This document shows positions 3,072-64,000 of a stretch of 64,000 bases of DNA, in pieces. Every line of letters begins with the position of its first letter. Position 1 is the stretch's first letter. Under the pieces are notes generated by a model that did no database searches, was not told the DNA's origin, and was given only the letters and a program-made list of their open reading frames with translations. A program made the translations under genes and the position numbers. The stretch is from an uncultured Syntrophaceae bacterium (GTDB lineage Bacteria > Desulfobacterota > Syntrophia > Syntrophales > UBA6807), in the NCBI GenBank assembly GCA_964523565.1, contig CAZGAK010000004.1:12933-76932 (forward strand), in the 5' to 3' direction.

Positions 3072-3103
3072 ATAGAGACCTCCGTTCTCGTAACCCGTTG
3101 CAA

Positions 3104-3983: not shown

Positions 3984-4013
3984 TTGCCAATTCAGTTTAA
4001 ATGTTCTTATAAT
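3984..4013 (+). promoter_or_regulatory. Candidate sigma-70 promoter for uvrB
   Basis: TTGCCA, 18 nt, then TATAAT, about 47 nt upstream of the uvrB ATG. Confidence 0.35.
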
Positions 4014-4059
4014 TCCGCGGATAGCATAATCATTATTAGCAAAGAACACAAGAAATTAA

Positions 4060-45529: not shown

Positions 45530-45746
45530 GGAAGGGTGTATATCAAACAAAAGGGGAGAATGGCAATGGGAAAGAGAAAGTACGGTACAACCATTTCACA
45601 AGGAAAATTACAATGGATATATCCACACATAGAGACATCAGCAGTATGGTATGTTCACTGCTGATCACCAGATCAGCCAAATGACTCCGGCAGTTTTCGT
45701 CCTTGTTAAAATACGTTAAACATGTATGTCGTTTTGATTAAAACGC

Positions 45747-46065: not shown

Positions 46066-46230
46066 CTCTATGGATGACAGCTTATACACCATTGCGGAAA
46101 ATTATCAAAGAGATATGTGAATTTTTAAAAAATTATGTTTAGGATGTGAAATGCAGGGTTGTAAAAATTTATAATATCCCGTAATAAAAATATTATTCTC
46201 TGTATACTTGTGTCACGGGGTTTTTCTAAA

Positions 46231-47382
46231 ATGTATGATTTGCTTATTGTGGGAGGCGGACCTTCCGGATCATCGGCAGGCAGGTTGGCCGGACAAAAGG
46301 GATTAAAGACACTTTTAATCGAAAAAGAAACATTCCCGCGGTATAAACCCTGTGGGGGGGCGCTCTCGGAACAGGCATTATCCTGCCTCGACTTTCCCCT
46401 CCCTGAATCCATTCGGGAAAGGGAGGTATTCGGGGTAAGGATGCATTTTAAGGGGACTGTAATAGAAAGTTATAAAAAATCCCGAATGGCAACAATGGTA
46501 ACGAGGAGTGCCCTGGATAGTTATCTCCTCGAAAAGGGGAAGGAAGCGGGGATAGAGGTAAAAACAGGAGAAAAAGTTCTTGATTATAGGGAAAAGGACT
46601 CCTTTGTGGAGATTTACACTAACGAGCAGATTTACAGGGCAAAGTTCGTCATTATCGGAGAAGGTTCTCAGGGAAAACTAAAAAGCAAGATAAGAAAGAT
46701 AGACGCAAAGGGTGAATATGGTATCTGTATCGTAACAGAAGTGGAAGAAGAGAATGAAAAGATTGACAAATATATGCCCGGAGCTATTGAGATTCATTTT
46801 GATGTAATGGATATGGGCTATGGGTGGATATTCCCCCACGAAAATTATTATTCAGTCGGAATTGGTGCATTTGCGAACAAATTGTCCGATCCAAAAAGAG
46901 TAATGAGAGAATTTTTGAAGAAAAACGGATTCAATGGCAACTATCGATTAAGGGGGCATACCATTCCTGCAGGTGGTATAAAGCGGAACGTTATTGGTTC
47001 ACGGGTTGTCCTGATTGGTGACGCGGCAGGATTCGTGGATCCATTCGCCGGAGAAGGGATAGCTTATGCCATCAGGTCGGGGCAGATTGCGGTAGAGGTA
47101 ATCGCTGAAATCGTACATCAAAATATAGGGCTGGAGAAACTGAGAAATTACGAAAATATCTGTCAGCGTGAATTTGTAAATAATTTTAAATATGCCTTGA
47201 TAACGGTGAAAATGATGTATCGTTTCCCCGATTTTTTCTTTAAAATCCTGACCGGCAACTATGAAGTATTTGAAAAATTTACTGATATTCCTACTTTAAA
47301 AAGGCAATATCGCAGCTACCTTGAATGGCTGGTCCCGAGATTGCCTAAATATCTTCTCTCCATGATGGTTTCTCGTCGCTAA
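46231..47382 (+). CDS. Geranylgeranyl reductase family FAD-dependent oxidoreductase
   Basis: MYDLLIVGGGPSGSSAGRLAG Rossmann motif, and GDAAGFVDPFAGEGI. Confidence 0.8.
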   Translation: MYDLLIVGGGPSGSSAGRLAGQKGLKTLLIEKETFPRYKPCGGALSEQALSCLDFPLPESIREREVFGVRMHFKGTVIESYKKSRMATMVTRSALDSYLLEKGKEAGIEVKTGEKVLDYREKDSFVEIYTNEQIYRAKFVIIGEGSQGKLKSKIRKIDAKGEYGICIVTEVEEENEKIDKYMPGAIEIHFDVMDMGYGWIFPHENYYSVGIGAFANKLSDPKRVMREFLKKNGFNGNYRLRGHTIPAGGIKRNVIGSRVVLIGDAAGFVDPFAGEGIAYAIRSGQIAVEVIAEIVHQNIGLEKLRNYENICQREFVNNFKYALITVKMMYRFPDFFFKILTGNYEVFEKFTDIPTLKRQYRSYLEWLVPRLPKYLLSMMVSRR

Positions 47383-47547
47383 ACTCACAAAGAATCCTTA
47401 TAGCCCCCGGGCAGTCGTTCATATGTCAACTATAACTACAATCCAGGTTGACAATGAAAAAAGGGGGTGGTAATAAGACCATGCCTTAGGGGAAGACCTT
47501 AACTTTTGGCAGGTTTCGGCAGACCCCGGAAGTCCAGAGGACGAATC

Positions 47548-48540
47548 ATGTCGACAAAAGATCAGCTTTTATCTTATCTCAAAGAAAAAAAGGGGGCCTG
47601 GGTTTCCGGTGAATTATTAAGCAACAAAATGACGATCAGCCGGTCGGCCGTATGGAAACATGTTCGCAAATTAAAGGAAGAGGGTTACCTTATCGAATCC
47701 TCTCCGAAAAAAGGTTATTTGTTTCGAAAGTCATCCGACTTGCTTTTGGCGGAAGAAATCCGTGAGGGGCTGGACACAAAACTTTTTGGCAGGGAGAACA
47801 TAGTTTATCTCAAAGAAACGGACTCTACTAATCTCAGGGCACGCGATTTGGCAGCCGGGGGTGCCCCTGAAGGAACAATCGTCATATCGGAAAAACAATT
47901 GTCGGGAAAGGGAAGACGGGGAAGAAGCTGGTTCTCACCTTCAGGAAAAGGGATTTATACATCCTTTATATTAAGACCAGCCATACCGCCAAGTGAAGCA
48001 CCCGGTATCGTGTTAATGACATCTGTCGCAGTAGCTGAAGCCCTTCTTGCGCAGATACAATTAAAAACTACAATTAAATGGCCGAACGATATTCTTGTTA
48101 ACAGGAAAAAAATAGCGGGTATCCTCATCGAGATCGGCACAGAAATGGATGTAGTCAATTATGTTGTTGTGGGTCTCGGGCTCAATGTGAACATCCCTTA
48201 TGAATGTTTTCCTGATGAGATCAGGGAAGAGGCTACATCCGTCCTCATTGAAACGGGGAAAATAATTCCACGAATAAATTTGATTCACGGTTACCTAAAG
48301 TGGTTTGAAAAATATTATAATATGTTTAACGAGGGACGGTTTGAAGAAATTGTAAGTCGGTGGAAGAAATTTTCAGATATTATTGGGCGTCGGGTTATGG
48401 TCGATCTGTCCGGCAGAACATATATCGGAGAAGTTTCCCATATAGATCAAGACGGTGTATTGGTAATCAAAGACTCAAACGGGGAAACTCACAGGATGTT
48501 TTCTGGAGATGTAACGCTTATCCATGATTCTGTTGATTAA
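47548..48540 (+). CDS. birA: Bifunctional biotin-[acetyl-CoA-carboxylase] ligase / biotin operon repressor
   Basis: N-terminal wHTH (ISRSAVWKHVRKLKEEGY) and ligase motif GKGRRGRSW. The last 5 sense codons and the stop lie inside the MITE TIR. Confidence 0.9.
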   Translation: MSTKDQLLSYLKEKKGAWVSGELLSNKMTISRSAVWKHVRKLKEEGYLIESSPKKGYLFRKSSDLLLAEEIREGLDTKLFGRENIVYLKETDSTNLRARDLAAGGAPEGTIVISEKQLSGKGRRGRSWFSPSGKGIYTSFILRPAIPPSEAPGIVLMTSVAVAEALLAQIQLKTTIKWPNDILVNRKKIAGILIEIGTEMDVVNYVVVGLGLNVNIPYECFPDEIREEATSVLIETGKIIPRINLIHGYLKWFEKYYNMFNEGRFEEIVSRWKKFSDIIGRRVMVDLSGRTYIGEVSHIDQDGVLVIKDSNGETHRMFSGDVTLIHDSVD

Positions 48541-48668
48541 TGGTCTTTTCGCCCAATCTCTGCGTTATGCTCAAAAAATAATCCTCGGAATATCAACTAT
48601 ATGCCTGCGGTTATTTTTTGCGCATGCCTTGATCTTGAACGAAAATCTTCATAAGTCAACAGAATCAT
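48524..48668 (+). mobile_element. MITE-like element, family 1 (145 bp)
   Basis: TIRs ATGATTCTGTTGAT...GTCAACAGAATCAT. The core is about 70% identical to the family-2 core. Confidence 0.75.
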
Positions 48669-48690
48669 TCATGAATAATCATTCATGAAT
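48667..48690. promoter_or_regulatory. Two perfect 10-bp palindromes ATTCATGAAT spaced by 4 bp (candidate operator)
   Basis: ATTCATGAAT-AATC-ATTCATGAAT, equivalent to a 14-bp tandem duplication AATCATTCATGAAT x2. It lies 25 nt upstream of the symporter ATG. Confidence 0.35.
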
Positions 48691-48714
48691 AGAAAAAAGG
48701 AGAATTTTCACTAA

Positions 48715-50100
48715 ATGAACATTGCTATTGTGGGAATATTTTTTACAGGACTGATTTTTATCGGCATTCTCAGTATGAAAAAGATCAAGACCACTTCAAG
48801 CTATTTCGTGGCGGATCGAAATGGCAGCACCGTGGCTATAACGGGTTCTCTTCTGGCCACTATAATTGGCGGTTCAAGCACTATAGGTATTGCCGGCTTG
48901 GGATATTCGAAAGGGCTTGTTGGCGCATGGTGGATGCTCGTAGGAGCAATCGGTTTGTTGATTCTCTCTTGCTGGCTTGCCAAAAAGGTTAGAAATTATG
49001 CTGTCTTTACCCTCCCCGAGATCCTGGAAAGGCAATATGGAGGGAATACGATAAAAATAATAGCTTCAATCGTGATTGCAACGGCATGGCTCGGAATCAT
49101 TGCTGGACAAATTATTGCAGCAGGAAAGATTTTATCCGTTTTATGGCCGGGACAATTAGATCTGTTAATGATCACGGCAACCTCAGTTTTTATTCTTTAC
49201 ACCGTCCTTGGGGGTCAATATTCCATACTAAAGACCGATCTTATCCAGTCCATTATCATTCTTGCGGGATTGCTCATATGCCTGATCCTCAGCATATCCG
49301 CAGCAGGCGGACTGACAACAATGGCCGGACAACTCCCCGAATCTTATCTCTCTTTTCCCGTTTCCTCCGCTTTTGGCTGGACTGACCTCCTGACATTTCT
49401 TCTGTTTGTAGGTGCGGCCTATCTTGTAGGCCCCGATATCTATTCCAGGATATTCTGTTCCAAAAGCCCCGACATTGCTAAAAAATCAACCATGCTGGCA
49501 GCAATTGCAATGATTCCCATAGCTTTTTCCATTACCTTGATAGGAATAACAGCACGGGTAATGCTTCCGGGGATTCCGCCGGAAAGTGCTCTGCCCGCCC
49601 TTGTTATGAATGCAATTCCCGTCGGACTTAACGGATTGGTAATAGCAGCTCTTCTGGCGGCAGTAATGTCTTCGGCAGATACATGCCTTTTGACGACAAG
49701 TACCATTATTGCAGCGGATATCATCAATCCCGTTTTTAAATCAACAATCAATGAAAAAACTCTTCTTATGATAACGAGAATCGGAGTAATCATAATAGGA
49801 ATCATTTCACTTCTGATTGCCTTAAAATTAAAAGGCATCATTGCTTCGCTGCTTTTAGGATATACGGTATACACGAGCGGTCTGGTGATTCCTGTTCTTC
49901 TTGGATTTTACGCAAAGAGCTTGAAATTGAATGCCGTCGGTGTTATAGCAGCCATCGCAGGGGGTGGTGGAATGGGACTGTTTTTAAAATTATCAGGACA
50001 CAACAATCTTGCACTCCTTACTCTTCCTGTTTCCGCTTTTCTCCTTTTTGCGGGAAGTTATTCCGCACACTTTCTGAAAGGTAAAGAGTCTGCCAGCTGA
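48715..50100 (+). CDS. Sodium:solute symporter family transporter
   Basis: 461 aa with about 12-13 TM segments and an SSF-like organisation. Substrate unknown. Confidence 0.8.
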   Translation: MNIAIVGIFFTGLIFIGILSMKKIKTTSSYFVADRNGSTVAITGSLLATIIGGSSTIGIAGLGYSKGLVGAWWMLVGAIGLLILSCWLAKKVRNYAVFTLPEILERQYGGNTIKIIASIVIATAWLGIIAGQIIAAGKILSVLWPGQLDLLMITATSVFILYTVLGGQYSILKTDLIQSIIILAGLLICLILSISAAGGLTTMAGQLPESYLSFPVSSAFGWTDLLTFLLFVGAAYLVGPDIYSRIFCSKSPDIAKKSTMLAAIAMIPIAFSITLIGITARVMLPGIPPESALPALVMNAIPVGLNGLVIAALLAAVMSSADTCLLTTSTIIAADIINPVFKSTINEKTLLMITRIGVIIIGIISLLIALKLKGIIASLLLGYTVYTSGLVIPVLLGFYAKSLKLNAVGVIAAIAGGGGMGLFLKLSGHNNLALLTLPVSAFLLFAGSYSAHFLKGKESAS

Positions 50101-51128: not shown

Positions 51129-51344
51129 TTACTCTAAAATTAACAGAACCGTATCCTCTTCTACTTGGTCATCCTGTTTCACCTTGATTTCTTTCACGAC
51201 CCCTGATGAATCGGCATAAATGGGGTTTTGCATCTTCATTGCTTCTATATTTAAAAGCTCCTCATCTTCATTTACCTGGTCACCAACCTGAACGTAAATT
51301 TCAAGAATCTTTCCTGATATTGGAGACATCACTTCTACACTCAC
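51129..51344 (-). CDS. Biotin carboxyl-carrier (biotinyl domain) protein
   Basis: 71 aa with the EAMKM biotinylation motif. Confidence 0.85.
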   Translation of the reverse strand: MSVEVMSPISGKILEIYVQVGDQVNEDEELLNIEAMKMQNPIYADSSGVVKEIKVKQDDQVEEDTVLLILE

Positions 51345-51421
51345 TTTATTTACCTCCCCTAAATTTATCTTTGTGAAAACATTAAAATAAAACTATAAAA
51401 AAGTTTAGCATAATTATTATC

Positions 51422-52546
51422 TTACTTCAAAAGCATACTCAGGAACAATCCCGCCGCAGTAGCCGTTCCAATTGTACCCGCCACATTCGGTCCCATCGCA
51501 TGCATAAGAATAAAATTTTTCTTGTCTTCTTCTCTTGCTACCACCTGGGCCACACGTGCGGCCATGGGTACGGCCGACACACCTGCTGCACCGATCAGGG
51601 GATTTATCTTATCCTTTAAAAACAGGTTCATAAACTTGGCTAAAAGAAGACCTGCAGCCGTACTGAAGCAAAAGGCAAACAATCCAAGAAAAAAGATATA
51701 TAGAGAGCCCGGTTTCAAAAAGACCTGTGCGGGCATGGTAGCACCGATGCACAGGCCCAGGAATATCGTTACAATATTAATTAACTCGTTTTGAGCAGTT
51801 TTGGATAGACGCTCCACAACACCGCACTCCCTGAACAGATTGCCCACCATAAACATCCCGACAAGTGGCGCGGAAGCAGGAACGAGAAGGCAGATGATTA
51901 CTGTTGCCAACAGGGGAAAGCCTATTTTTTCCAGATTACTGACCTTCCGTAATCTTGGCATCCTGATTTTTCGCTCCTCTTTCGTCGTTAACAACCTCAT
52001 AATGGGTGGCTGGATTATCGGCACCAGGGCCATATACGAATAAGCGGCGACTGCTGTTGCGCCGAGAAGATGAGGAGCAAGTTGCGAAGTTAAAAATATC
52101 GTTGTAGGTCCGTCGGCCCCCCCTATGATTCCTATAGAGGCAGCTTCATTTAGGTTAAATCCCAGCAAGAGGGAACCAAAGAAAGTCGCATAAACTCCGA
52201 ATTGTGCCGCCGCACCGAGAAGCAGCGTTTTTGGGTTGGCTATTACCGGCCCAAAATCGGTCATAGCACCTATACCCATAAAGATGAGCGGAGGTAAGAT
52301 ATCCCACCTGTCAATGGCAAAATGATAGAATACCCATAGTAAATGTCCTTCTTTCATGAGATCAGTAAGGGGAAGGTTGACCACCAGGATTCCAAAACCG
52401 ATAGGCACCAGAAGCAATGGTTCATACTGCTTTGTTATGCCAAGTGTAATGAGGATAATCCCAATCATCCACATCAGGATATTGCCCAATGTTAAATGGT
52501 AAAAACCCATCTTTGAAACCAACTGATAAAAAAGACCGGCATCCAT
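51422..52546 (-). CDS. Sodium ion-translocating decarboxylase beta subunit (OadB/GcdB/MmdB family)
   Basis: 374 aa and polytopic, with the [20 protein letters not shown]-terminal motif. Confidence 0.9.
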
Positions 52547-52616
52547 TATTCTCTACCTTGCGGATTGATTTTTTGACTTGGATTATTTTCTCTATGTTTA
52601 AGGAGCAACAATATTT

Positions 52617-52775
52617 TTATTCCTTTCCCTTGCTTTGCTTCACTATCTTCTCGATTTGATGGGTGATTTTCGAAAAAAGATTGATAGAGAGCTGCAAGAC
52701 AATCAGACAGCCAAAAACTCCGCCAAATCCAACGAAAAACACCTCAAACGCTTTTCCCCATGGAATGGATTCCAT
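52617..52775 (-). CDS. Small decarboxylase membrane subunit (OadG-like)
   Basis: Hand-translated as MESIPWGKAFEVFFVGFGGVFGCLIVLQLSINLFSKITHQIEKIVKQSKGKE. It has a single TM helix and sits directly upstream of the beta subunit. Confidence 0.5.
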   Translation of the reverse strand: MESIPWGKAFEVFFVGFGGVFGCLIVLQLSINLFSKITHQIEKIVKQSKGKE

Positions 52776-52934: not shown

Positions 52935-53585
52935 TCATGACAAGAATGCATAAGACACAAAATTCCCGTCATGACTTAAGCTGATATCAACTAACGCCTT
53001 ATTGCCCTTGATGGACACCATTGGAGATCCTAAACCATGAGGACCTTTAAGGCGAAGGATATCAATATCTTCAACATTTTGTTTAAGATGTGAAGAAATT
53101 CTTCTTTTTGCCAATCTCCTTACCACTAAGGATGCAGCGTCCGGTGAATAACGAATCTCCTCTCCCTGCATCTTCCTGATTTTCTGTACCCCACAGACGA
53201 CTGAATTAATCTCTTCTGATCTACCTGCGATTCCTACACAATGGATGTAACCGTTACCTGCAAAAATTCTGACAAACACAGGACCATGAGGTGTTTCAAC
53301 CACTCCCGACATAAAAGATCTGTTTTCCTTTACGATTTTCTCCGACGTATTCAGTCTTACTTCATATCTCCGGGGTGCAGCGGTTACATCGGCATTTGCT
53401 TTGCAAATTGCCTTATATCCCGTCTCTTTTCCTGCCCACAGGCTCCAGAGAAGGAAATCCGGCTCACTGCAATTCAAAATCTGTTGTCTCTCACATTCAC
53501 TGAAAACCCGATCAATGAAGCGCGTATCCCGGCTTTTTCCCCTCGCTTGAGGATCGGTCAAATCCACAATATCGTTGCCTATCAA
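52935..53585 (-). CDS. 4'-phosphopantetheinyl transferase
   Basis: MIGNDIVDL start and the WAGKETGYKA motif (W..KE...K). 216 aa. Confidence 0.75.
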   Translation of the reverse strand: MIGNDIVDLTDPQARGKSRDTRFIDRVFSECERQQILNCSEPDFLLWSLWAGKETGYKAICKANADVTAAPRRYEVRLNTSEKIVKENRSFMSGVVETPHGPVFVRIFAGNGYIHCVGIAGRSEEINSVVCGVQKIRKMQGEEIRYSPDAASLVVRRLAKRRISSHLKQNVEDIDILRLKGPHGLGSPMVSIKGNKALVDISLSHDGNFVSYAFLS

Positions 53586-54306
53586 AATAATCTTTCTCCA
53601 TTCGGGCCAGCTCTTTTACAATCTGTTCCGCACAGTCTCTTTGCGCTTTCAGGCCCTTACTCTCGGTATAAGGTTTAAATGTTTCTACTTTCATGGTGAA
53701 AAGTTCACCAAACCGGGGAATGTTACTGTATGTATCCTGTCCATCACCACGCAGGTAGATGCACATAACATGGCAATCGGAATTACTATTTATCAAACGG
53801 CCGACTCCATAGGAAAAGTTTTCTGTATCGACCCGGCCTGTCCGGGAACGTCTGCCCTCCGGGAAAATGAGTAAGCTCTCCCCTTTTTCCAGGAGATAAG
53901 TACACTTGTCCATGGTGGATTTCATCTTCTTTCGATTTCCGCCGCGACTTACGGGAATACACTTTGCCAGGTAACAGATAACTGCCAGAAAAATATTGCT
54001 CTGAAAATTTGCACTCTCCGGAAGGTTCCAGGGAAGTATCCTGTAATTAAGCATATAACGATGCAGGGGCGCCATGGCATAAGCCAGAACCACTGAATCT
54101 ATCATGGTCAGGTGATTGGGGCATATCATCCAGGAACCCCTGTGTTTCACAAGCAGGTCTCTGACCGTTTTCCTCGTTTTGTTCAGGTCTCTTACCCTGT
54201 ACCTCATAAGCTTTATCGCAAGAAACACAAGGGGACCAACAACGAAAACCAACAGGCTTCCCATGATGAACTGCAGGGACAGGAGATATTTTGTTGTCCT
54301 TTTCAT
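53512..54306 (-). CDS. PlsC-type (lysophospholipid) acyltransferase
   Basis: N-terminal TM helix, HX4D block CPNHLTMIDS and an FPEGRRSRTG block. Confidence 0.8.
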   Translation of the reverse strand: MKRTTKYLLSLQFIMGSLLVFVVGPLVFLAIKLMRYRVRDLNKTRKTVRDLLVKHRGSWMICPNHLTMIDSVVLAYAMAPLHRYMLNYRILPWNLPESANFQSNIFLAVICYLAKCIPVSRGGNRKKMKSTMDKCTYLLEKGESLLIFPEGRRSRTGRVDTENFSYGVGRLINSNSDCHVMCIYLRGDGQDTYSNIPRFGELFTMKVETFKPYTESKGLKAQRDCAEQIVKELARMEKDYFDRQRYCGFDRSSSEGKKPGYALH

Positions 54307-54314
54307 GGATTGCC

Positions 54315-54563
54315 TTAATTCAGCTTATTCAGTATGACATCCACAGCATCCCCGATGGTCCTGATCTGATCGGCATCATCATCATCGATTTCAATATCAA
54401 ATACATCTTCACACTTGATGATCACGTCTACCAGACGTGCGGAATTGACCTTGAGGTCATCAAGTATATGGGTATCTTTTGTCGCGTTTTCCAGCAAAGC
54501 CGGATCTTTTACATAGGGTTTGAGGATATTAACCATCTCTTGAAAAATTTGTTTTTCGTCCAT
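54315..54563 (-). CDS. Acyl carrier protein (non-AcpP type)
   Basis: 82 aa and acidic. The putative Ppant site is LDDLKVNSARLVDVI, with NSA in place of the canonical DSL. SD is AAGGAG. Confidence 0.8.
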   Translation of the reverse strand: MDEKQIFQEMVNILKPYVKDPALLENATKDTHILDDLKVNSARLVDVIIKCEDVFDIEIDDDDADQIRTIGDAVDVILNKLN

Positions 54564-54586
54564 TCTTTTTCTCCTTAATTAAAATA

Positions 54587-54621
54587 GTTTAAAGTTCCAT
54601 GTTTAAAGTTTAAAGTTCCGG
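54587..54621. repeat. Heptad tract GTTTAAA GTTCCAT GTTTAAA GTTTAAA GTTCCGG
   Basis: Read directly, just upstream of the ACP gene (minus strand). Confidence 0.8.
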
Positions 54622-54722
54622 ATCTTTCAAATCCATCGAACAATCCCAAGTTTTTGGTTAACGACCCATGATTCGACATTATGTGGCCTTCGCAGAAGGT
54701 CTCTCGGGGGTGAACCACCCAC

Positions 54723-54750
54723 AACTTGAAACTCGTAACTTGAAACTGAT
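54723..54750. repeat. Heptad tract AACTTGA AACTCGT AACTTGA AACTGAT (inverse orientation)
   Basis: Read directly, ending 1 nt from the KS stop codon. Confidence 0.8.
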
Positions 54751-54751
54751 T

Positions 54752-56038
54752 TCATCCTTCCCACTTTTTGAAAATCAAACAGCTGTTCACATCCCCAAAA
54801 CCGAAACAGGCCTTGGCAATGATTTTCAAGTCAGTGTATTCCATGACTTTGTGAGGAATCTTGTCCGCAAACACCTCAATTTCAGGATGTAAATCATCAC
54901 AATTAATCGATGGGTGCAAGAACCCTTTATATAACTGCAAGACAACGGCAACACTTTCAATTGCTCCAGCTGCTCCCAGGCAGTGACCGATCATCGATTT
55001 GGTAGAGTTTATATACGGAAAGTCCTGAGGATCTCTATTGAGAGCTCGCGACCAGTTGTTTACCTCAGATGGATCGGCAAACGTTGCCGTCAGGTGACCG
55101 TTGATTGCATCGATCTCATCAGGGGTAGTATCTGCATCAACCAAAGCGCTTCTTATACAGCGTTGCACACCATCCGGATTCGGCGCCGTCATGGAACCAC
55201 CGTTGCGCTGACCGCCGCTATTAACATACCCTCCAAGTATTTCCGCATAAATCCTCGCACCCCTGGACAGTGCCGTTTCCAATTCCTCAAGGACCAGAAC
55301 CGCTCCCCCCGCACCGGGCACAAAACCGTTTGCCGAGGCGCTCATCGGGCGGGAGCCTTTTTCCGGGTGATCGTTGAACTTGCGTGCAATAACACGCATG
55401 GAATCAAATCCGGCCCAAATATAAGGAGATGCCCCTTCAGACCCTCCTGCCAGCATCCGCTTTGCCAGTCCCGTTCGTATCCTCCACATTGCATCTACAA
55501 TGGCCTCTGTCCCGGTGCTGCAGGCGGCGGAGTTCGATGTTACCTGGTTCCCTAAAGCCAGCAAGCCTCCTACACGGGCGCTTGTTCCGCTGTTCATGAC
55601 CTGCTCGACAATCCTGCTTCCCATACGGCGCGTCCTGCCTTCATTGACCATGGGAACGACTCTTTCCGCAATCGTATCCATGCCACCGACCCCACAGCCA
55701 AGGATCGCACCCGTGTCCCAGTTTACCTGACCGTCATCATCACCAGATAATGCAAATCCCGCATCACGCCACGCATCGACGGCAGACACGGATATATATC
55801 CGATATTATCGTTCAGGGAGAGTAGCTTTTCGTGGTCGAAATAGCTCTTGCGAATCTCATCAAAATTCTCCGGCATGCCACCAATCTGGCAGGAAAACTT
55901 TAGTTCCTTCAGTCTGGGAAAGAATCGGATTCCTGACCGGCCCTCGCGCAGGGCCTGTTCAAAATTGTTCAACCCGTGTCCGTTCGGCGCCACAACGCCC
56001 ATTCCTGTTATAACAACTCTATTTTTCATTAAAATCAA
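54752..56038 (-). CDS. Beta-ketoacyl-ACP synthase (KAS I/II-like, divergent)
   Basis: Active-site Cys SNSAACSTG, and His residues in NGHLTAT and GHCLGAAG. Confidence 0.9.
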   Translation of the reverse strand: MILMKNRVVITGMGVVAPNGHGLNNFEQALREGRSGIRFFPRLKELKFSCQIGGMPENFDEIRKSYFDHEKLLSLNDNIGYISVSAVDAWRDAGFALSGDDDGQVNWDTGAILGCGVGGMDTIAERVVPMVNEGRTRRMGSRIVEQVMNSGTSARVGGLLALGNQVTSNSAACSTGTEAIVDAMWRIRTGLAKRMLAGGSEGASPYIWAGFDSMRVIARKFNDHPEKGSRPMSASANGFVPGAGGAVLVLEELETALSRGARIYAEILGGYVNSGGQRNGGSMTAPNPDGVQRCIRSALVDADTTPDEIDAINGHLTATFADPSEVNNWSRALNRDPQDFPYINSTKSMIGHCLGAAGAIESVAVVLQLYKGFLHPSINCDDLHPEIEVFADKIPHKVMEYTDLKIIAKACFGFGDVNSCLIFKKWEG

Positions 56039-56495
56039 CTCCCCTGCCGGTCAGTATACCGTAACAGACAAATTCTCCATTTTCCCTTTCCATACTGACC
56101 TTCGTTTTTAAATTTCCTCTGCGAAGATAGATTTTTTTACCCTTAATAATAACCCTTTCTCCCGGGCTTACGATACCGTTAAACTCGCAATCATCAACCA
56201 TGGTGAAAAGGGTAACTAATCGCTTAATTCGATCTGATGATAAACCTTGATGCATGAGCTGATATATACCGAAGGCAACAACGCCTGTCTGGGCCATTGT
56301 TTCAATTAAAATAACTCCGGGTGTAATCGGCTGGCCGGGGAAATGTCCCTTATAGAAGTACTCATCGTCCCGGAAGCGGTATGTTCCGATAATATGATCC
56401 TCATCCATTTCCAGTATGTCATCGATAAAACGGAACGGTTGCTGTTGAGGAACCAGAAGAAGCACATCTTCAATAGTTTTTTTATCAGCCTCCAT
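56019..56495 (-). CDS. FabZ-like 3-hydroxyacyl-ACP dehydratase
   Basis: PFRFIDDILE...YFYKGHFPGQPITPGVILIETMAQTG. The start at MEADKK (56495) overlaps the fabG stop by 11 nt. Confidence 0.8.
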   Translation of the reverse strand: MEADKKTIEDVLLLVPQQQPFRFIDDILEMDEDHIIGTYRFRDDEYFYKGHFPGQPITPGVILIETMAQTGVVAFGIYQLMHQGLSSDRIKRLVTLFTMVDDCEFNGIVSPGERVIIKGKKIYLRRGNLKTKVSMERENGEFVCYGILTGRGVDFNEK

Positions 56496-57243
56496 AAAGC
56501 CCCCCGTTAACGTGAATGACACCTCCCGTAATGTAGTTGCCCCGGCTGGCAAGAAAGGCCACAACATCGGCCACTTCTTCAGGATGCCCCATCCGTCCCA
56601 GGGGAATATTCTCAAGAATCTTTTGCTGTACGTCATCTGGAAGACTCTTCGTCATAGCCGTATCAATAAATCCCGGGGCTACCGAATTGACGAGAATGTT
56701 CCGCCCCCATAATTCCTTGGCAAGAGATTTGGTAAAAGCATCGAGAGCCGCCTTTTCCATAGTGTATGGGATCTGTCCGCCGTTGCCGGTATGTCCTACC
56801 ACACTGGAAATATTGATGATCCTGCCGCTGTCCCTGCGGAGCATGAAAAGACGCAATATCCGTTTGGTCAGGTACCAGGTACCGCGCAGCATTGTCCGCT
56901 GTGAGTCAAATTCGCCGATTTTCATCGAATTAATATCGCTGTTAATCGATATTCCGGCATTGTTGACCAACACATCCACGCAGCCTGCTATACTCTTGAT
57001 AGACTTTGCCATTTCTTCCACTTCATCCACATCGGCCAGATCCGCTTTCAGAAGAAATCCGTCTTCTATTTGAGACAGGACATCCTTCGCCTGATCCTCA
57101 CTTCTTCGATAATGAATACCTATTTTAAATCCTTCAGCGGAAAGGGCTTTGCAACACGCAGCGCCTATTCCTGTTCCACCGCCGGTAACAATGGCAACAG
57201 GTTTTAATTCTGAATTTTGAATTTTGAATTTTGAATTATTCAT
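56485..57243 (-). CDS. fabG: 3-oxoacyl-ACP reductase (SDR)
   Basis: TGGGTGIG cofactor motif and the catalytic YTMEK. The start overlaps the fabA stop (ATGA). Confidence 0.9.
   Translation of the reverse strand: MNNSKFKIQNSELKPVAIVTGGGTGIGAACCKALSAEGFKIGIHYRRSEDQAKDVLSQIEDGFLLKADLADVDEVEEMAKSIKSIAGCVDVLVNNAGISINSDINSMKIGEFDSQRTMLRGTWYLTKRILRLFMLRRDSGRIINISSVVGHTGNGGQIPYTMEKAALDAFTKSLAKELWGRNILVNSVAPGFIDTAMTKSLPDDVQQKILENIPLGRMGHPEEVADVVAFLASRGNYITGGVIHVNGGLYGG
57202..57243. repeat. Heptad tract (TTTGAAT)x3 with flanking degenerate units, inside the fabG 5' end
   Basis: TTTTAAT TCTGAAT TTTGAAT TTTGAAT TTTGAAT TATTCAT, which encodes MNNSKFKIQNSELK on the minus strand. Confidence 0.85.
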
Positions 57244-57881
57244 ATGTCTCTCTTTATAATTCCCCCCTTGGAATTGGGTGACATCTTCGGATAATCGGGA
57301 TAGACAATTCCCTTGAAGATTCCCGTACGGGCCTTTTGAATGGTCATTATCATTTCATCATCCACGAATACTTTGCCATCCCCTATGACAATACTTGAAC
57401 CTGAATCCTTAAGATGAGAAAACCGCCTGACATCAATTTCATAACGGACCGTTTGATTATAGGGTCGTATCTGTCCATTGAAGGAAATTTCCTCGCATCC
57501 CAATGCCCTGCCGCCGCCTAATCCTCCCTTCCAGGTGCAGTAAAAACCCAACAATTGCCAAATTGCGTCCACGCAAAGGCAACCCGGCTGTACGGGATCT
57601 CCCGGCATGTGGCACTGAAAATACCATGCGTCCATCCTTATATCCTGCTCGGCGATAATAGACCCCTTCCTGCCGTCACTCTTTATTGAAAGGATGCGAT
57701 CCGCCATGAGGAAGGGGGGTGCGGGTAAACGGGCATCGAAACCTTCAGGCGCATCATCAACCAATCGTCCGTAAGCAAAAGCAATCAGGTCGTTCAGTTC
57801 AAAACTTTCTTTTTTCATAAATTCAGAGTATTTCACTGTTTCCTCACATCCGGTTTTTAACTTGAAACTCGAAACTTTCAT
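57240..57881 (-). CDS. fabA: FabA-type 3-hydroxyacyl-ACP dehydratase/isomerase
   Basis: LPAPPFLMADRI and FQCHMPGDPVQPGCLCVDAIWQLLGFY...GGGRALG. The start is either ATG at 57881 (ATGA overlap with the KAS III stop) or ATG at 57818 (MKKESFEL). Confidence 0.85.
   Translation of the reverse strand: MKVSSFKLKTGCEETVKYSEFMKKESFELNDLIAFAYGRLVDDAPEGFDARLPAPPFLMADRILSIKSDGRKGSIIAEQDIRMDAWYFQCHMPGDPVQPGCLCVDAIWQLLGFYCTWKGGLGGGRALGCEEISFNGQIRPYNQTVRYEIDVRRFSHLKDSGSSIVIGDGKVFVDDEMIMTIQKARTGIFKGIVYPDYPKMSPNSKGGIIKRDI
57859..57879. repeat. Heptad tract AACTTGA AACTCGA AACTTTC
   Basis: Read directly, at the KAS III/fabA junction. Confidence 0.75.
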
Positions 57882-58864
57882 TCCAGGATCTTCAGCATCG
57901 TTCGGACCCACGTAAGCCCCGAACCAACCATGATTAATGCTATATGGTCTCCCGGTCGAAGTCTGTCCCAATTCTGACTCAGGACACACGGAGCGCTTGA
58001 GCATCCCGTATTGCCGTAATCCACAACATTGTACCAGTGATCTTCTTCAGATACATCGCACCTCTCGCATACAGTCTTCAGCATTCCCAAATTTGCCTGA
58101 TGCCCCACAAACTTGAACCGGCCTGAGTTTATGGGAAAATCTTCCTGTAACTTCCTGAGCGATTCTGTCGTTTTACGGATGGCAAAACCCTGAACGGCGC
58201 TTCCATTTTGCCTGAAGTGTCCCAGTCGGGGAACACAAACCTTGTCCCACGACAACGGATTTGAATCACAAAAAAACGCCTCAAATACCATTTTTGAAGA
58301 AACGGAAGCGGACACAACGGCGGCGCTGCTTCCATCACCAAACAGCGGTACCGACCTCCGGTCGGAATAGTCTATCGTACGGGTGAGGTTTTCCGGATTC
58401 ACGACCAGGATATAAGGTGGAAGTGTTTCAGGCTTCATATCGGACAAAAACTTGAGATCCATGCCAAAGCTGGAACATGCAGAATTAAGATCGAAACAGG
58501 GAACATCAATCCCCAGTTCCGCCGCCACGGTGGACGCTTCAGCCGGGGTAACGTAATCCGGCGCCGAACTTCCTGATACAACCATTCCCACATCTTCAGG
58601 CTTCAGCGCGGCGCGCTTCAGGGCCAGACGTGCTGCAAGAGCCCCCGTTTGCGCATTCGTGTACAGACTCGCCTCAAATGCTGCCCGCGTATCCTGATTT
58701 TTTGTCGTTTTTATATAATCCAGGGGCAGGCTCGTGCGGCGGGTACGGATACCCACACGCTCCAGAATCCACTCCTCGCTGCTTCCTATATCCAGTTCTT
58801 CCAAAAACCGGTTGGTAATTACATTTTCCGGGTGGAAATGGCCCACCCCATGAAGATACAGCAT
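57878..58864 (-). CDS. KAS III-like (FabH family) condensing enzyme
   Basis: Cys-His-Asn triad contexts LNSACSSF, VGHQAN and YGNTG. Confidence 0.85.
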   Translation of the reverse strand: MLYLHGVGHFHPENVITNRFLEELDIGSSEEWILERVGIRTRRTSLPLDYIKTTKNQDTRAAFEASLYTNAQTGALAARLALKRAALKPEDVGMVVSGSSAPDYVTPAEASTVAAELGIDVPCFDLNSACSSFGMDLKFLSDMKPETLPPYILVVNPENLTRTIDYSDRRSVPLFGDGSSAAVVSASVSSKMVFEAFFCDSNPLSWDKVCVPRLGHFRQNGSAVQGFAIRKTTESLRKLQEDFPINSGRFKFVGHQANLGMLKTVCERCDVSEEDHWYNVVDYGNTGCSSAPCVLSQNWDRLRPGDHIALIMVGSGLTWVRTMLKILE

Positions 58865-58867
58865 TTT

Positions 58868-60067
58868 TTATACTAACTCCCGTCCTATAATCATATCCTG
58901 AACTTCTCTTACCCCTTCATATATGTCGATAATATGAGCATCCCGTGCCAGCTTGGAGATCTCATATTCCGACATGAAACCGTAACCGCCATGGAGATGA
59001 AGACCCTCTTTGGTACAGAAAAGGGCCGCTTCCGCCGCAGTATTTTTCGCCAGAGAGGCATAAATCCCTCTGTCTTCGGCCTGTTCCTGAACTTTGAATG
59101 CCGCCTTCATCAGAGCCAGATCGGCCAGTTCCACTTTTTTCCACATCTTGACCAGTGTGTCTCTCGCTACGGGCATATCACAAATCCTCTGCCCGAACTG
59201 CTTGCGCTCCTTCGTATATTCTAAAGTTACATCGAAGGCCCTCTTAGCCAGACCGACGCCGATTGCCGCAACCATGGGTCTTGCATAATCAAGCACCTCA
59301 ATGGCATATTTGAAACCGAGTCTCCTGTTACCTATGATCTGGTGATCTTCGATAACTACGTCCTCAAACTTTACCGTTGCCGTATTCGACAGGCGCTGTC
59401 CGAGTTTGTCTTCCGGTTTGCCCGTTATTACCGTACCTCCTCCGGGCACGGTGATCTCCCTGGCATCGAAAGGCTGAGAAGTAACTATTCCATTATGAAT
59501 AGAATCCGAGGGGATAATTACACAGGCCACCATAAGGCTACCCGGTTTTCCCACCTTGCAAAAGACGGTAAATTGGGAGGCGTATGAAGCATTGGTAATA
59601 AAACACTTTTCCCCGTTTAAAATATACTTTCCATCATCTCTTTTTTTAATAAATGTAGTCATGGCCAGGTTATCAGAACCTGCACCCGGTTCCGTCAGAC
59701 AGAAAGATGAAATTATGGGGGCTTCAACAAAGGGACGGAGAAAGGCCTCTTTTTGTTCCTCCGTTCCATTCTGTGCAATGACGACATTGGCAAGATCGTT
59801 ACACATGGCCGATGTTGAAACTCCTGAGTCGCCATAGGACAGTTCTCTAACGATCAACGCGCTGGATACTATATCTATTTCGTATCCCTTTACAGATTCC
59901 GGAATGCTCAAGTTTAACAAACCGATCTCCCAGGCCTTATCTATTATATGCTGTGGAAAAGCATGTTCCTGTTCCAACCTCATAACATCTGGCAGTATTT
60001 CGCCTTTGACAAACTTTCGAACCGTATCCACATACATCTGCTGACTATCAGTCAGGTTGAAATCCAT
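58868..60067 (-). CDS. Acyl-CoA dehydrogenase family flavoprotein
   Basis: 399 aa with CLTEPGAGSD and the C-terminal catalytic region IYEGVREVQ. Confidence 0.9.
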   Translation of the reverse strand: MDFNLTDSQQMYVDTVRKFVKGEILPDVMRLEQEHAFPQHIIDKAWEIGLLNLSIPESVKGYEIDIVSSALIVRELSYGDSGVSTSAMCNDLANVVIAQNGTEEQKEAFLRPFVEAPIISSFCLTEPGAGSDNLAMTTFIKKRDDGKYILNGEKCFITNASYASQFTVFCKVGKPGSLMVACVIIPSDSIHNGIVTSQPFDAREITVPGGGTVITGKPEDKLGQRLSNTATVKFEDVVIEDHQIIGNRRLGFKYAIEVLDYARPMVAAIGVGLAKRAFDVTLEYTKERKQFGQRICDMPVARDTLVKMWKKVELADLALMKAAFKVQEQAEDRGIYASLAKNTAAEAALFCTKEGLHLHGGYGFMSEYEISKLARDAHIIDIYEGVREVQDMIIGRELV

Positions 60068-60108
60068 AATTATTCTCCCTTTGTGATTCGTTTAAACCCG
60101 AATCGATT

Positions 60109-61059
60109 TCATAGACGATTTTTTTCAAACAGCCGGCTTGCTGCCGAAAGGGTGGTAATGGACAGGCATGGCACACCTGCAGTTTTGAAGAATTCCCTGA
60201 GGGGGCGGCTCGGTCCTATTTCAACAATCGAGTTTGCCACGGAAGCCATGGCTTCCATATTTTGTCTCCACTGGACCGTGCTGCTTAATTGAGATGCCAG
60301 TTGATCAATAATTTCACTGCAATGGTCTGAATAAAAACGACCGGTGAAATTTGAGGTAACTTTTTCTGCGTTTTTCGGTGTCAACTTCAAGATGAGAGCC
60401 CGTAAGGCCTCTTTAAAAGCTTCCATCACGGCATTCATAAAACGGCTGTGGAAGGGTGCGCTTACGTTGAGAGGTACGAAACGAAATGATTGCTTTCCGC
60501 TGAAAGCTTCCTCAAGACGATCCTTCGCTTCGGGCATTGCACTCGATTTACCGCTTATAACGACCTGATTGGCAGAGTTGTCATTCGCCAAATCAATTGG
60601 CAGTTCACTTAATGTCTGTCGGACCATGTTTAAGTCCAGATCATCTGATATAACAGCCGCCATCCCTCCCATTCCCGCGGGTGTTGCTTCCTGCATGAGT
60701 TGGCCGCGAATACTCACGACTTTCAGGGCTTCGGAAAAAGGTAAAACACCGGCAGCAACCAGGGCGGTGTATTCGCCCAGGCTATGGCCACCAAAATATT
60801 GAGGGGTAAAATTATATAGGGAATGGAGTCCACGCAGCATGGCAATTTCCGTTGCAAGAATACATGGTTGGGCATATTTTGTCAGATTCAGTCTTTCGTC
60901 CTCTCCAAAACACATAGTCGCAACATCCCAACCCAGGATGTCGGATGCTTCATGATATGTGTCTCTGCTCACGGGAATATTCTCATAAAAGTCCTTCCCC
61001 ATGCCGGGACGTTGAGCCCCCTGTCCGGGAAAGGCAACAGCTATAATCGATCCATTCAT
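60109..61059 (-). CDS. fabD: Malonyl-CoA:ACP transacylase
   Basis: FPGQGAQ and GHSLGEY motifs. Confidence 0.9.
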   Translation of the reverse strand: MNGSIIAVAFPGQGAQRPGMGKDFYENIPVSRDTYHEASDILGWDVATMCFGEDERLNLTKYAQPCILATEIAMLRGLHSLYNFTPQYFGGHSLGEYTALVAAGVLPFSEALKVVSIRGQLMQEATPAGMGGMAAVISDDLDLNMVRQTLSELPIDLANDNSANQVVISGKSSAMPEAKDRLEEAFSGKQSFRFVPLNVSAPFHSRFMNAVMEAFKEALRALILKLTPKNAEKVTSNFTGRFYSDHCSEIIDQLASQLSSTVQWRQNMEAMASVANSIVEIGPSRPLREFFKTAGVPCLSITTLSAASRLFEKNRL

Positions 61060-61189
61060 TATGGACAGTCTCTCCTTGTTTTCGATTCATTAAGTACAAT
61101 ATTACGGCTTTCATTCTCTTTGCATGATTCATGCCAGCAACAATTACCCAGTTGTTTCTATGCCTAACATGCCGATATTACTGAGCATA

Positions 61190-61498: not shown

Positions 61499-63001
61499 AT
61501 GGAAACTTTTGTAGCAGCAACGATTAGCCTGACCATATCGACGGCTCTTATCATCAAAGGAAAGAAAAATCCTCTTTATCTTTCCTTTGCTGTTTTATGT
61601 TTCGCCTTATTTTCTCAGAAAATAGGCATTTTTTTGTATGGGATTTTGCATACCGATTATTGGAAAGCTGTATATTACCTGGGTATCCTTTCTATACCAC
61701 CCCTTGCCATTACATTCAGTCGTTATTTGCTGCACCACCACACGTTCTTATCCAGACGAGACACTATCTTGACAGGTTTTGTAAGTCTTCTGATTGTTGC
61801 AGCCCTTTTTACCCCTTTATTCCGATGGCATTACCTTAATATCTTATTGTACATATATTGCGGTCTTGTCCTGATTTACTGTTTCACAGCCCTTATCCGC
61901 CAAATTATGGAAGAGCCTCCGGGTGCTGAAAAAAAAAGGCTGGTCTATGTGGCAAGTGCCTGTATCGTGGCCGCTGTCTTCAGCCTTTCCGATGTATTGA
62001 ATAGCTATGGATTACCTCCACTGTCCGACATAGCCCTTGTCGCTCTCATCTACTTCCTCTTCATTATTATCACCCACACGGATATTCCGGAATTGTATGA
62101 AATCATGCTGAGGACTATCCTGATTTTTTTCGTTATATTGTTTGCGACCGCTGTAATTTACGTAGTTACCGATTTGTTTGATGAGAGGCAAAAGCTTTCG
62201 TTTACAAGTGTCTTTATGGCATCCTTCCTCATCGTAATCCTGATAGACCCTCTCAAAATGATTTTGAGAAAAACTTTCAGTTATTTCTTTTTTGATAAAA
62301 AAGACCTTTCAGCTTCTCTTTATTCGATTGACGACGAGTTGGAGAAAAAGAATTTTGCCCTTCTCGAAGAGACGGCAACGGGCCTTGCCCATGAGATACG
62401 AAACCCCCTTGGTTCTATAAAAGGTGCAGCCGAGTACCTTAAAGAAGTGGATACGACGGAAAACCCCAAACTTCTTGACATCATTATAGAAGAAACAGAC
62501 AGACTGAATACCGTCGTATCTCAATTCCTGAATTATGCAAAACCTTACGTAATGAATGCGGAAAAACAGGACATAAACAATATCATCAAGAAGGTTATCT
62601 CCCTGATTAAAGCTACAAATCTTCCGGAGAATATTACAATCGAAGAAAATCTTGACCCTGATTTGCCGGATGTTAAGATGGATGGGGAACAAATGATCCA
62701 GGTTATTCTGAACATGGCATTGAACGGAATAGATGCCATGCACGATGGCGGCACTTTAAGTTTTGCAACATCAAGGATAAAAAATGACGGGGGGAAAAGA
62801 GTGGAAATTACCGTTCGTGACACAGGTCGTGGGATCAATAAAGAAGACTTGAAAACGATTTTCAAGCCTTTTTTTACAACGAAGAAAAAAGGTACCGGCC
62901 TTGGTCTCCCAATATGTCAAAGGATCGTCAAAAACCATGGTGGTCATATTTATGTAGAATCGACTCCCGGCAAGGGAACGGCATTTTTTGTAAGGCTTTG
63001 A
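61499..63001 (+). CDS. Membrane sensor histidine kinase
   Basis: About 7 N-terminal TM segments, H-box LAHEIRNPL and HATPase boxes (DTGRGI, GTGLGL). Confidence 0.85.
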   Translation: METFVAATISLTISTALIIKGKKNPLYLSFAVLCFALFSQKIGIFLYGILHTDYWKAVYYLGILSIPPLAITFSRYLLHHHTFLSRRDTILTGFVSLLIVAALFTPLFRWHYLNILLYIYCGLVLIYCFTALIRQIMEEPPGAEKKRLVYVASACIVAAVFSLSDVLNSYGLPPLSDIALVALIYFLFIIITHTDIPELYEIMLRTILIFFVILFATAVIYVVTDLFDERQKLSFTSVFMASFLIVILIDPLKMILRKTFSYFFFDKKDLSASLYSIDDELEKKNFALLEETATGLAHEIRNPLGSIKGAAEYLKEVDTTENPKLLDIIIEETDRLNTVVSQFLNYAKPYVMNAEKQDINNIIKKVISLIKATNLPENITIEENLDPDLPDVKMDGEQMIQVILNMALNGIDAMHDGGTLSFATSRIKNDGGKRVEITVRDTGRGINKEDLKTIFKPFFTTKKKGTGLGLPICQRIVKNHGGHIYVESTPGKGTAFFVRL

Positions 63002-63144: not shown

Positions 63145-64000
63145 ATGAAGAAGATTTTAGTAGTTGATGACGAATCAAATATGCTCCTCGTTTTAGAGGC
63201 TATGCTCAAAAAAGAGGGCTATCAGGTCGCTACGGCATCTGATGGACTTGAAGCTCTTGATGTTCTGCGTGATGATGACGATGTGGCCGTTGTCGTCACC
63301 GATCTGAAAATGCCGAACCTCGATGGCCTTGGTCTTTTGGCCGAGGTAGTCAAGAATTATCCTTCCATACCTGTCATCATAATTACCGCACACGGTACAG
63401 TAGAAACAGCGGTGGGAGCCCTGAAAAAGGGAGCATTTGACTATATTACCAAGCCATTTGAACAGGAGGACCTGAAAAGCATCACACATAAGGCCTTTAA
63501 GACCCGGATTTTAAGCGAAGACGAATTGGTCCTGGCTCCTGAGGAAATAGATCATTATAATATCATAGGCACCAGCCAAGAGATGTTGAAGATATATGAT
63601 ATTATAAGAAAAGTAGCACCTACGATGACTACCATACTCATTACGGGAGAGACAGGTACGGGAAAGGAGCTCATTGCCAACGCAATTCATAGAAACAGTC
63701 CTCGCAAGGATAATCCCTTTATAAAAATCAACTGTGCTGCCATTGCGGAAAACCTGCTGGAAAGTGAGCTTTTCGGATATGAAAAGGGGGCTTTTACCGG
63801 CGCTATCAACAGAAAACCGGGGAGATTTGAACTGGCCCATAAGGGCACCCTTTTTCTCGATGAAGTAGGAGAACTGCCAAAAGATATGCAGGTAAAGCTG
63901 CTCCGTGTTATCCAGGATCAGGAATTTGAAAGGGTAGGTGGTCTCCGCACCATCAAGGTCGATGTCAGGCTAATTACGGCAACAAACAGAGATCTCTTCA
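63145..64000 (+). CDS. Sigma-54-dependent response regulator (NtrC family), N-terminal 285 aa; continues past right edge
   Basis: REC domain (ILVVDDE...VVTDLKMP), AAA+ Walker A GETGTGKE and the GAFTGA loop (YEKGAFTGA). Confidence 0.92.

Follow-up and report, generated by a model that had tools for sequence, protein, structure and literature searches.

We analysed a 64,000-nt stretch (the window) of contig CAZGAK010000004.1, from the assembly of an uncultured Syntrophaceae bacterium, and found that its minus strand encodes a ten-gene lipid operon between positions 52935 and 61059. In order of transcription, as assigned with Pfam and NCBIfam, the genes encode FabD, an acyl-CoA dehydrogenase (ACAD)-family flavoprotein, beta-ketoacyl-acyl carrier protein synthase III (KAS III), FabA, FabG, a FabZ-like protein, a ketosynthase (KS), an acyl carrier protein (ACP), a PlsC-type acyltransferase (AT), and a phosphopantetheinyl transferase (PPTase). 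A preliminary description of this DNA had given the same genes, order and coordinates; all ten open reading frames (ORFs) are present there, and every protein matches its expected family. Judged from sequence, we see about an even chance that the operon specifies an accessory type II fatty acid synthase (FAS), regulated and self-contained, whose saturated or cis-monounsaturated chains go to a membrane lipid.

Transcription begins with a FabD-like malonyl-CoA:ACP transacylase (60109-61059), which matches Acyl_transf_1 at 1e-30, carries the active-site motif GHSLGE, and scores 249 bits with TIGR00128, where the cut-off is 261. Next come the ACAD-family flavoprotein (58868-60067), the proposed enoyl-ACP reductase (ENR), with three ACAD Pfam domains (1e-18 to 5e-36) and a catalytic Glu in an IYEG motif, and KAS III (57878-58864), a FabH-like initiating condensing enzyme with ACP_syn_III and ACP_syn_III_C domains that falls below the fabH cut-offs (TIGR00747, 152 of 292 bits). 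The FabA-type 3-hydroxyacyl-ACP dehydratase/trans-2,cis-3 isomerase (57240-57881; Pfam 8e-39) is the only one of the ten to reach an NCBIfam curated cut-off for a housekeeping enzyme (NF003509, 200 bits; cut-off 124), and it matches E. coli FabA in the PDB (1mka, E=1e-36). Below the cut-offs again are the FabG-like 3-oxoacyl-ACP reductase (56485-57243; adh_short_C2 2e-52; TIGR01830 241 bits, cut-off 298) and the FabZ-like 3-hydroxyacyl-ACP dehydratase of 158 aa (56019-56495), which has a FabA-like domain at ~1e-15 to 2.6e-15 and scores 74-81 bits with FabZ models (TIGR01750, 74 of 155). The sole KS, a FabF/FabB-like elongating beta-ketoacyl-ACP synthase (54752-56029; two KS domains, 1e-33 and 5e-28), reaches 297 of 494 bits with the fabF model TIGR03150 and 257 of 630 with FabB; in the PDB it is closest to the FabF structure 4jga (4e-62).

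The remaining three genes supply a carrier, its activation, and an outlet for the chain. The dedicated ACP (54315-54563) matches PP-binding at 2e-5 and lies below every AcpP cut-off (TIGR00517, 41 of 70 bits). Its phosphopantetheine site reads LKVNSARLVD rather than the canonical DSLD and is invariant across related loci; the ACP has 1839 homologues, the top 120 of which are 73-95% identical to it. The membrane-anchored AT (53512-54306) belongs to the PlsC/lysophospholipid acyltransferase (LPLAT) family (PF01553, 2e-15, 57 bits against a cut-off of 23). The AcpS-like 4'-phosphopantetheinyl transferase (52935-53585; 216 aa) matches the ACPS Pfam family over residues 2-78 (1e-10, 42 bits against a cut-off of 25) and scores 17.5 of 59.8 bits with the acpS model TIGR00516. 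The PPTase motifs IGNDIVDL, WxxKExxYKA and DISLSHDG are conserved in 81 loci, with ~90 additional residues between the conserved motifs; a meaningful sequence match in the PDB was not found, and a single-sequence structure model had a predicted local distance difference test score (pLDDT) of 35. Catalytic motifs read from the translations are intact in all ten proteins, including Cys/His/His in the KS, Cys/His/Asn in KAS III, His/Asp in FabA, His/Glu in FabZ (GHFPGxPxxPGV...E), and Ser plus YxxxK in FabG.

These families and motifs bear out the preliminary description: the operon is FAS-like, of type II, and self-contained, and it brings a PPTase of its own, a non-canonical ACP and a PlsC-type AT. 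The contrast it drew with the usual plsX-fabH-fabD-fabG-acpP-fabF layout also holds, with nine of the ten proteins under the curated cut-offs. The overlaps it described between neighbouring genes needed one correction. For those at 57878-57881 and 57240-57243 (4 nt each) and at 56485-56495 (11 nt), gene calls made independently on identical metagenome contigs from ENA and JGI (L001-L004) give the same result, and the ATGA start overlap of FabA matches the call on L001. The 20-nt overlap at 56019-56038 probably does not stand: gene callers place the KS start at an ATG, and the ATG at 56029, which leaves an overlap of 11 nt, is probably the start rather than the TTG at 56038, which would give a protein of 428 aa. 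The 74-nt overlap between the AT and PPTase genes was retained. The long TTG start of the PPTase at 53585 is preferable because the N-terminal IGNDIVDL that it adds is conserved in 81 of 81 related loci. Within this overlap (window 53512-53585) the last 24 codons of the AT run across the conserved PPTase N-terminus in another frame; the overlap is ~70 nt across Syntrophales loci and ~20 nt in Desulfobacteraceae. The largest intergenic gap of the operon is the 188-nt KS-ACP spacer (54564-54751, minus strand), which holds two copies each of GGAACTTTAAAC and GTTTCAAGTT, with the repeats at ~54587-54619. A structured RNA in this spacer was considered and rejected (fold z=-0.26; no Rfam match even at E<=1), and the length of the spacer varies among other loci.

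How does this operon complete a cycle of chain elongation? Profile and homology searches found no homologue of FabI, FabK, FabL or FabV in the operon, as had been noted before, or in the rest of the 64-kb window. By sequence, the ACAD most closely resembles solved medium-chain acyl-CoA dehydrogenases (MCADs), which are its best PDB matches (1.6e-69, aligned full-length), and alignment to MCAD 3mdd shows that the catalytic Glu is retained (IYEGVREVQ). The protein forms one tight orthogroup with members at least 69% identical, and it varies only in an insertion of ~20 aa at about residues 175-207. Among 1.84 billion representatives searched, the orthogroup appeared as one full-length sequence at 72% identity, and the next full-length ACADs were at most 40% identical.

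A sister version of the operon in a Desulfobacteraceae clade points to what the ACAD does. In that clade the ACAD is absent, and its slot is taken by a 312-aa short-chain dehydrogenase/reductase (SDR) whose best matches are FabL in NCBIfam and B. subtilis FabL (3oic) in the PDB, and which carries the Y-x6-K signature of enoyl-ACP reductases (YAAVAAAK). At locus L070 the order is fabD-SDR-KAS III-fabA-fabG-fabZ-KS-ACP-AT-PPTase, with the SDR gene overlapping fabD by 4 nt and abutting an orthologous KAS III gene whose product is 60% identical to that of the window, so that the SDR gene is translationally coupled to both neighbours. None of the loci inspected has both ACAD and SDR, and the Y-x6-K FabL-like SDR is confined to operons of the sister clade. 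We read this pattern as a non-orthologous displacement in a fixed operon slot. Because a FabL-like ENR sits where the ACAD would be, the ACAD is most simply the enoyl reductase of the operon, which would make the cycle complete; all operon variants encode a full elongation cycle only if this is so. We conclude that the ACAD is probably the enoyl reductase of the Syntrophales operon. A further step, which we take only tentatively and regard as somewhat doubtful, is that it founds a flavin-dependent class of ENR, unrelated to FabI, FabL and FabV or to FabK, with electrons drawn from electron-transfer flavoprotein (ETF) or an ETF-based bifurcating complex.

The FabA and the AT bear on what is made and where it goes. 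Since FabA passes the dehydratase/isomerase model and aligns to E. coli FabA, the expected products are saturated and cis-monounsaturated. All 14 homologues of the AT that were compared keep NHLTMIDS (HX4D) and FPEG (FPEGxRSR) unchanged. Among NCBIfam models the AT matches the acyl-ACP--phospholipid O-acyltransferase domain best, at a score well under the cut-off, and with the housekeeping PlsC model (TIGR00530, 1-acyl-glycerol-3-phosphate acyltransferase) it scores 37 bits, below the cut-off of 103. No sequence match to the AT was found in the PDB; in its AlphaFold2 model (pLDDT 78), residues 3-34 form an N-terminal membrane helix and residues 247-264 a disordered tail. On this reading the product would be an ordinary-looking chain, saturated or monounsaturated, that goes into one particular lipid under particular conditions; it would not be a polyene. 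As a default guess, the acceptor would be a lysophospholipid or glycerol phosphate.

Taken together, these assignments suggest the following route. The non-canonical ACP would be converted to its holo form by the AcpS-like PPTase, FabD would load malonate onto it, and KAS III would start the chain. Elongation would proceed through the single KS, FabG and FabZ/FabA, with the enoyl thioester reduced by the ACAD in place of FabI, FabK, FabL or FabV and electrons probably supplied by ETF. Through FabA, part of the chains would escape reduction as cis-3 intermediates and emerge as cis-monounsaturated products, and the PlsC-type AT would move the finished acyl group from the dedicated ACP to a membrane lipid acceptor. 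Family membership and conserved motifs underlie the steps given to the PPTase, to FabD and KAS III, and to the KS, FabG, FabZ and FabA; we infer those given to the ACAD and the AT. The sequence that the preliminary description had outlined, from dedicated ACP through chain building to transfer to a lipid, seems to us the most sensible reading of the genes.

The operon also appears to be regulated as a unit. A candidate sigma-54 (-24/-12) promoter, TGGCATGAATCATGCA, lies on the minus strand at 61121-61136 and begins 78 nt upstream of the fabD ATG. A strict search for TGGCAC-N5-TTGC gave zero matches, and it was a relaxed sigma-54 pattern that returned this site; scans for terminators and sigma-70 promoters gave no more than chance. 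Of the related loci, 46 of 57 have TGGYAY-N5-NTGCN ahead of the first gene of the operon, among them loci in which the ACAD rather than fabD comes first; by comparison, each strand has a background of 0.043 matches per kb. Divergent from the operon is a gene for a histidine kinase with an N-terminal seven-transmembrane (7TM) sensor (61499-63001, plus strand; HisKA, HATPase_c, HisKA_7TM, 7TMR-DISM_7TM), followed by one for an NtrC-type sigma-54 activator response regulator (63145-64000, plus strand) that runs off the end of the window. The partial regulator was recognised by tblastn with the regulator of locus L038 (76% identity over residues 1-284), and its full-length orthologue on the identical contig L001 has Response_reg, Sigma54_activat and HTH_8 domains. 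The kinase is the most often conserved neighbour (27 loci) and the activator is kept upstream in 24; these two genes are the only conserved neighbours of the operon. The conserved -24/-12 element and the linked two-component system indicate that the operon is very probably a sigma-54 unit, transcribed from this promoter and probably controlled by the adjoining kinase and activator. The promoter and the two-component system were absent from the preliminary description, and a regulated type II FAS under sigma-54 control goes beyond it. A separate observation is that the window's only zero-mismatch match to TGGYAYR-N4-YTGCW, TGGTATGTTCACTGCT, lies at 45647-45662 on the plus strand, ~550 nt upstream of a gene for a geranylgeranyl-reductase-like flavoprotein (46210-47382).

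The operon is widespread in two bacterial groups. In a scan of one genome per species with the AT alignment, 473 species genomes proved to encode a relative; the 80 best of these all belong to Syntrophales (Syntrophaceae, Smithella, Syntrophus) or to Desulfobacteraceae, Desulfococcus and Desulfonema, and the nearest relative among them is Syntrophaceae bacterium UBA3084. ACAD homologues at 76-100% identity come from metagenome-assembled genomes of Syntrophales and "Deltaproteobacteria". By tblastn with the ten proteins, the order ACAD-KAS III-FabA-FabG-FabZ-KS-ACP-AT-PPTase is identical in 43 of 80 loci, and in most of the others a contig end interrupts the operon. An order shared by 43 related loci is far beyond chance. 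The operon is real, and its wide distribution in Syntrophales and Desulfobacterales extends what had been said of it. Identity among loci is 70-95% for the ACP, KS and ACAD, 51-89% for the AT, and 30-60% for the PPTase, the fastest-evolving member. A tree of the KS resolves two clades, Syntrophales and Desulfobacteraceae. In at least 14 related loci fabD is not in the operon, and fabA is missing from it in 5 loci of a Smithella-like clade, so partners elsewhere in the genome must substitute there. At one locus (L053, 3500-6300) the OadA-like and ACAD genes are split into several short ORFs, which may be assembly frameshift errors rather than pseudogenes. No curated family exists for the operon, and no description of it was found in the literature searched; the operon would thus mark an uncharacterised, regulated branch of membrane lipid biology in Syntrophales and Desulfobacterales.

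Is the operon an addition to the fatty acid synthesis of the cell, or is it that synthesis? It could be a divergent housekeeping FAS II of Syntrophales that has replaced the canonical fab cluster, with the ACAD as sole ENR. The operon encodes all the functions needed for fatty acid synthesis, and its wide distribution and strong conservation in Syntrophales fit such a role. Moreover, tblastn with E. coli and B. subtilis AcpP over the window and 84 loci (~1.1 Mb) found only the cluster ACP, although the lack of a canonical AcpP in a sample of this size is expected by chance. However, we consider a housekeeping role decidedly unlikely, and the indirect evidence favours an accessory one, because nine of the ten proteins fall under the curated cut-offs, the ACP has NSAR rather than DSLD and is served by its own fast-evolving PPTase, fabD or fabA has gone from the operon in many lineages, and dependence on a sigma-54 promoter that needs an activator would be unusual in an essential pathway. 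The Desulfobacteraceae with the sister operon also belong to a group whose norm is a canonical fab cluster, which counts in the same direction.

Two other explanations concern the ACAD itself. It may act with KAS III on the primer, interconverting acyl-CoA and enoyl-CoA from beta-oxidation or crotonate metabolism so that KAS III can feed the dedicated ACP, while an ENR is supplied in trans. Syntrophales live on acyl-CoA metabolism, the ACAD is by sequence an ordinary MCAD/Bcd-type enzyme, its gene and that for KAS III always adjoin, and the Desulfobacteraceae variant has an extra KAS III that passes the NF005703 equivalog cut-off, all of which is consistent with handling of a primer. What makes this explanation unlikely is that an operon with its own FabG, FabZ and usually FabD would be outsourcing the reductase alone, which is less parsimonious, and that the in-situ replacement of the ACAD is a FabL-like protein with Y-x6-K. 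L070 keeps KAS III and swaps the ACAD, so the two genes are separable. Alternatively, as the preliminary description had proposed, there may be no enoyl reduction at all, and the product would be a polyene-like or polyunsaturated chain, as in aryl-polyene (APE) clusters. The ACAD would in that case add or shift double bonds. The operon of the window does lack a member of the known ENR families and has two dehydratases, and precomputed Pfam marks include weak ApeI-like and ApeP-like matches. The step from no reductase to a polyene-like product is not supported, however, given the bona fide FabL-like Y-x6-K reductase that the sister operon holds at the ACAD position. In addition, the ApeI-like match in a direct scan is E=0.027 (15 bits against a cut-off of 28.5), the FabA fits the bifunctional dehydratase/isomerase model of ordinary unsaturated fatty acid synthesis, and the operon and its conserved neighbours have one KS and no chain-length factor (CLF), adenylation enzyme, ammonia-lyase, LolA or MMPL. 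We therefore regard this last explanation as very unlikely.

Several points weigh against an accessory FAS in which the ACAD is the reductase. The ACAD-to-FabL swap is a single split in the KS tree and so amounts to one evolutionary event. A survey of neighbours at the loci found no etfAB genes adjoining the operon, and the sequence of the ACAD gives no sign of a preference for ACP over CoA thioesters. We know of no ACAD-family enoyl-ACP reductase, and none was found in the literature searched. The sigma-54 promoter and the two-component system are not in the Desulfobacteraceae variant, and a Foldseek search with the AT model returned a generic GPAT1/PatA fold (TM-score ~0.45) that gives no clue to the acceptor. 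Finally, a 2022 review lists FabI, FabK, FabV, FabL, FabL2, FabI2 and FabMG as the only ENRs, that is, SDR types and FabK, and leaves acyl-CoA dehydrogenases unmentioned (PMC9260719).

Comparison with known systems shows what is shared and what is particular to this operon. E. coli-type FAS II with its FabA/FabB branch uses the same set of FabD, FabH, FabG, FabZ, FabA, elongating KS and ACP. Unlike that system, the operon has divergent paralogues under the curated cut-offs for all but FabA, one KS that cannot be clearly assigned to FabB or FabF, NSAR for DSLD in the ACP, an ACAD for FabI, an AT and a PPTase within the operon, and a very probably sigma-54-dependent promoter. The rhizobial cluster acpXL-fabZXL-fabF2XL-fabF1XL-lpxXL, which provides the very-long-chain fatty acid of lipid A, follows the same logic: it has an ACP of its own, paralogues of FAS II enzymes, and a dedicated acyltransferase that delivers the product to one lipid. 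The likeness to acpXL had been pointed out before, and it holds for the logic; it does not extend to the acyltransferase, which is of the PlsC/LPLAT family (PF01553) and not LpxXL, or to the enzyme set, which is larger in the operon and has one KS instead of two. The operon adds FabD, KAS III, FabA, FabG, the ACAD and the PPTase, with which chains can be built from scratch rather than by extension of housekeeping products.

APE clusters share with the operon a dedicated ACP, a KS, a ketoreductase, two dehydratases, an LPLAT-type acyltransferase and the lack of a classical ENR. In contrast to them, the operon has no KS-CLF pair, no adenylating or ammonia-lyase starter enzyme, no LolA/MMPL, no thioesterase and no methyltransferase; its dehydratases are of FabA and FabZ type, and its sister version has an enoyl reductase. 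Membership in this class was rejected on the single KS, the ApeI-like E value, the lack of any ApeP match in the direct scan and the missing starter and export genes. The distinction from APE clusters drawn earlier, on the lack of a CLF, a starter enzyme and MMPL/LolA, is upheld.

For the enoyl-reduction step, the closest points of reference are the SDR-type reductases and several families of ACADs. The Desulfobacteraceae operon has a FabL-like Y-x6-K SDR at the ACAD position, whereas the ACAD fold is unrelated to that of FabL and FabI and its cofactor is FAD; electrons would have to come from ETF or another donor, not straight from NAD(P)H. ACADs of the Bcd-EtfAB/CarC type are enoyl-CoA reductases, and MbtN and PigA/RedW act on carrier-protein thioesters; all have the same fold and catalytic Glu as the operon ACAD. 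By analogy, these enzymes offer precedents for reductive ACADs and for carrier-protein-bound substrates. However, the operon ACAD lies well under their NCBIfam cut-offs, has the ~20-aa insertion and lacks adjacent etf genes, and to our knowledge none of Bcd-EtfAB, CarC, MbtN and PigA/RedW is part of a FAS elongation cycle.

Why would such a reductase matter? No other step of bacterial fatty acid synthesis varies as much as the one catalysed by enoyl-ACP reductase, which is also a drug target. If the ACAD acts in the FAS II cycle, it would be a new ENR class beyond the SDR types and the FMN enzyme FabK, and the in-situ swap of ACAD and FabL-like reductase predicts that the ACAD would rescue an enoyl-reductase deficiency given an electron donor. 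It would also couple the synthesis of fatty acids to the ETF pool, a link of consequence for organisms that live at the thermodynamic limit. Syntrophales, among them Smithella and Syntrophus, have a key part in methanogenic degradation. In syntrophs that oxidise fatty acids or benzoate, lipid synthesis could then be a sink for the hard-to-dispose electrons of acyl-CoA oxidation, or energy could be conserved at enoyl reduction, and the sigma-54-regulated operon would give the cell a second, energy-saving way to make membrane acyl chains. Dedicated type II FAS clusters are known; what sets this one apart is its previously unrecognised regulation, its wide distribution and the credible case that it makes for an ACAD-family ENR.

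The surroundings of the operon offer some further observations. The rest of the window is ordinary chromosome (yidC, uvrB, uvrC, obg, nrdD, grpE, dnaK), and the whole window holds no tRNA genes or Rfam families. Downstream of the operon on the minus strand lie genes for OadG (52617-52775), which is directly adjacent, OadB (51422-52546) and a 71-aa biotin carrier (51129-51344); the same three genes are directly downstream in L013, L014 and L048. Parts of biotin-dependent Na+-decarboxylases or transcarboxylases recur beside the operon at differing positions (51129-52775 in the window, and in L078, L058 and L072). An OadA-like 5S carboxyltransferase gene comes right after the PPTase gene in L058 (~11566) and L072 (~8387), and the Smithella-like L078 has an OadA-like gene inside the operon, between fabD and the ACAD gene (3516-4967). 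These recurrent decarboxylase parts may be linked to malonyl-CoA supply. On the plus strand at 47506-50100, a gene for a BirA biotin ligase/repressor is followed by one of the sodium:solute symporter family, a pair that suggests a vitamin (biotin or pantothenate) uptake unit near the biotin-carrier and FAS genes.

In the Desulfobacteraceae variant, at L029 (11655-16168) and L049 (~9762), the different KAS III that passes the NF005703 equivalog cut-off is encoded after the PPTase gene. Next after it, L029 has genes for lipid transport, PqiA-PqiA-PqiB (MlaD), which are unique to that locus, and L049 has a second KS gene, whose product shares 61% identity with the KS of the cluster. A yidC-jag pair occupies 690-3146 on the minus strand, where the window begins, and cumulative GC skew reaches a local minimum near 4 kb; the origin of chromosome replication may be close to the window.

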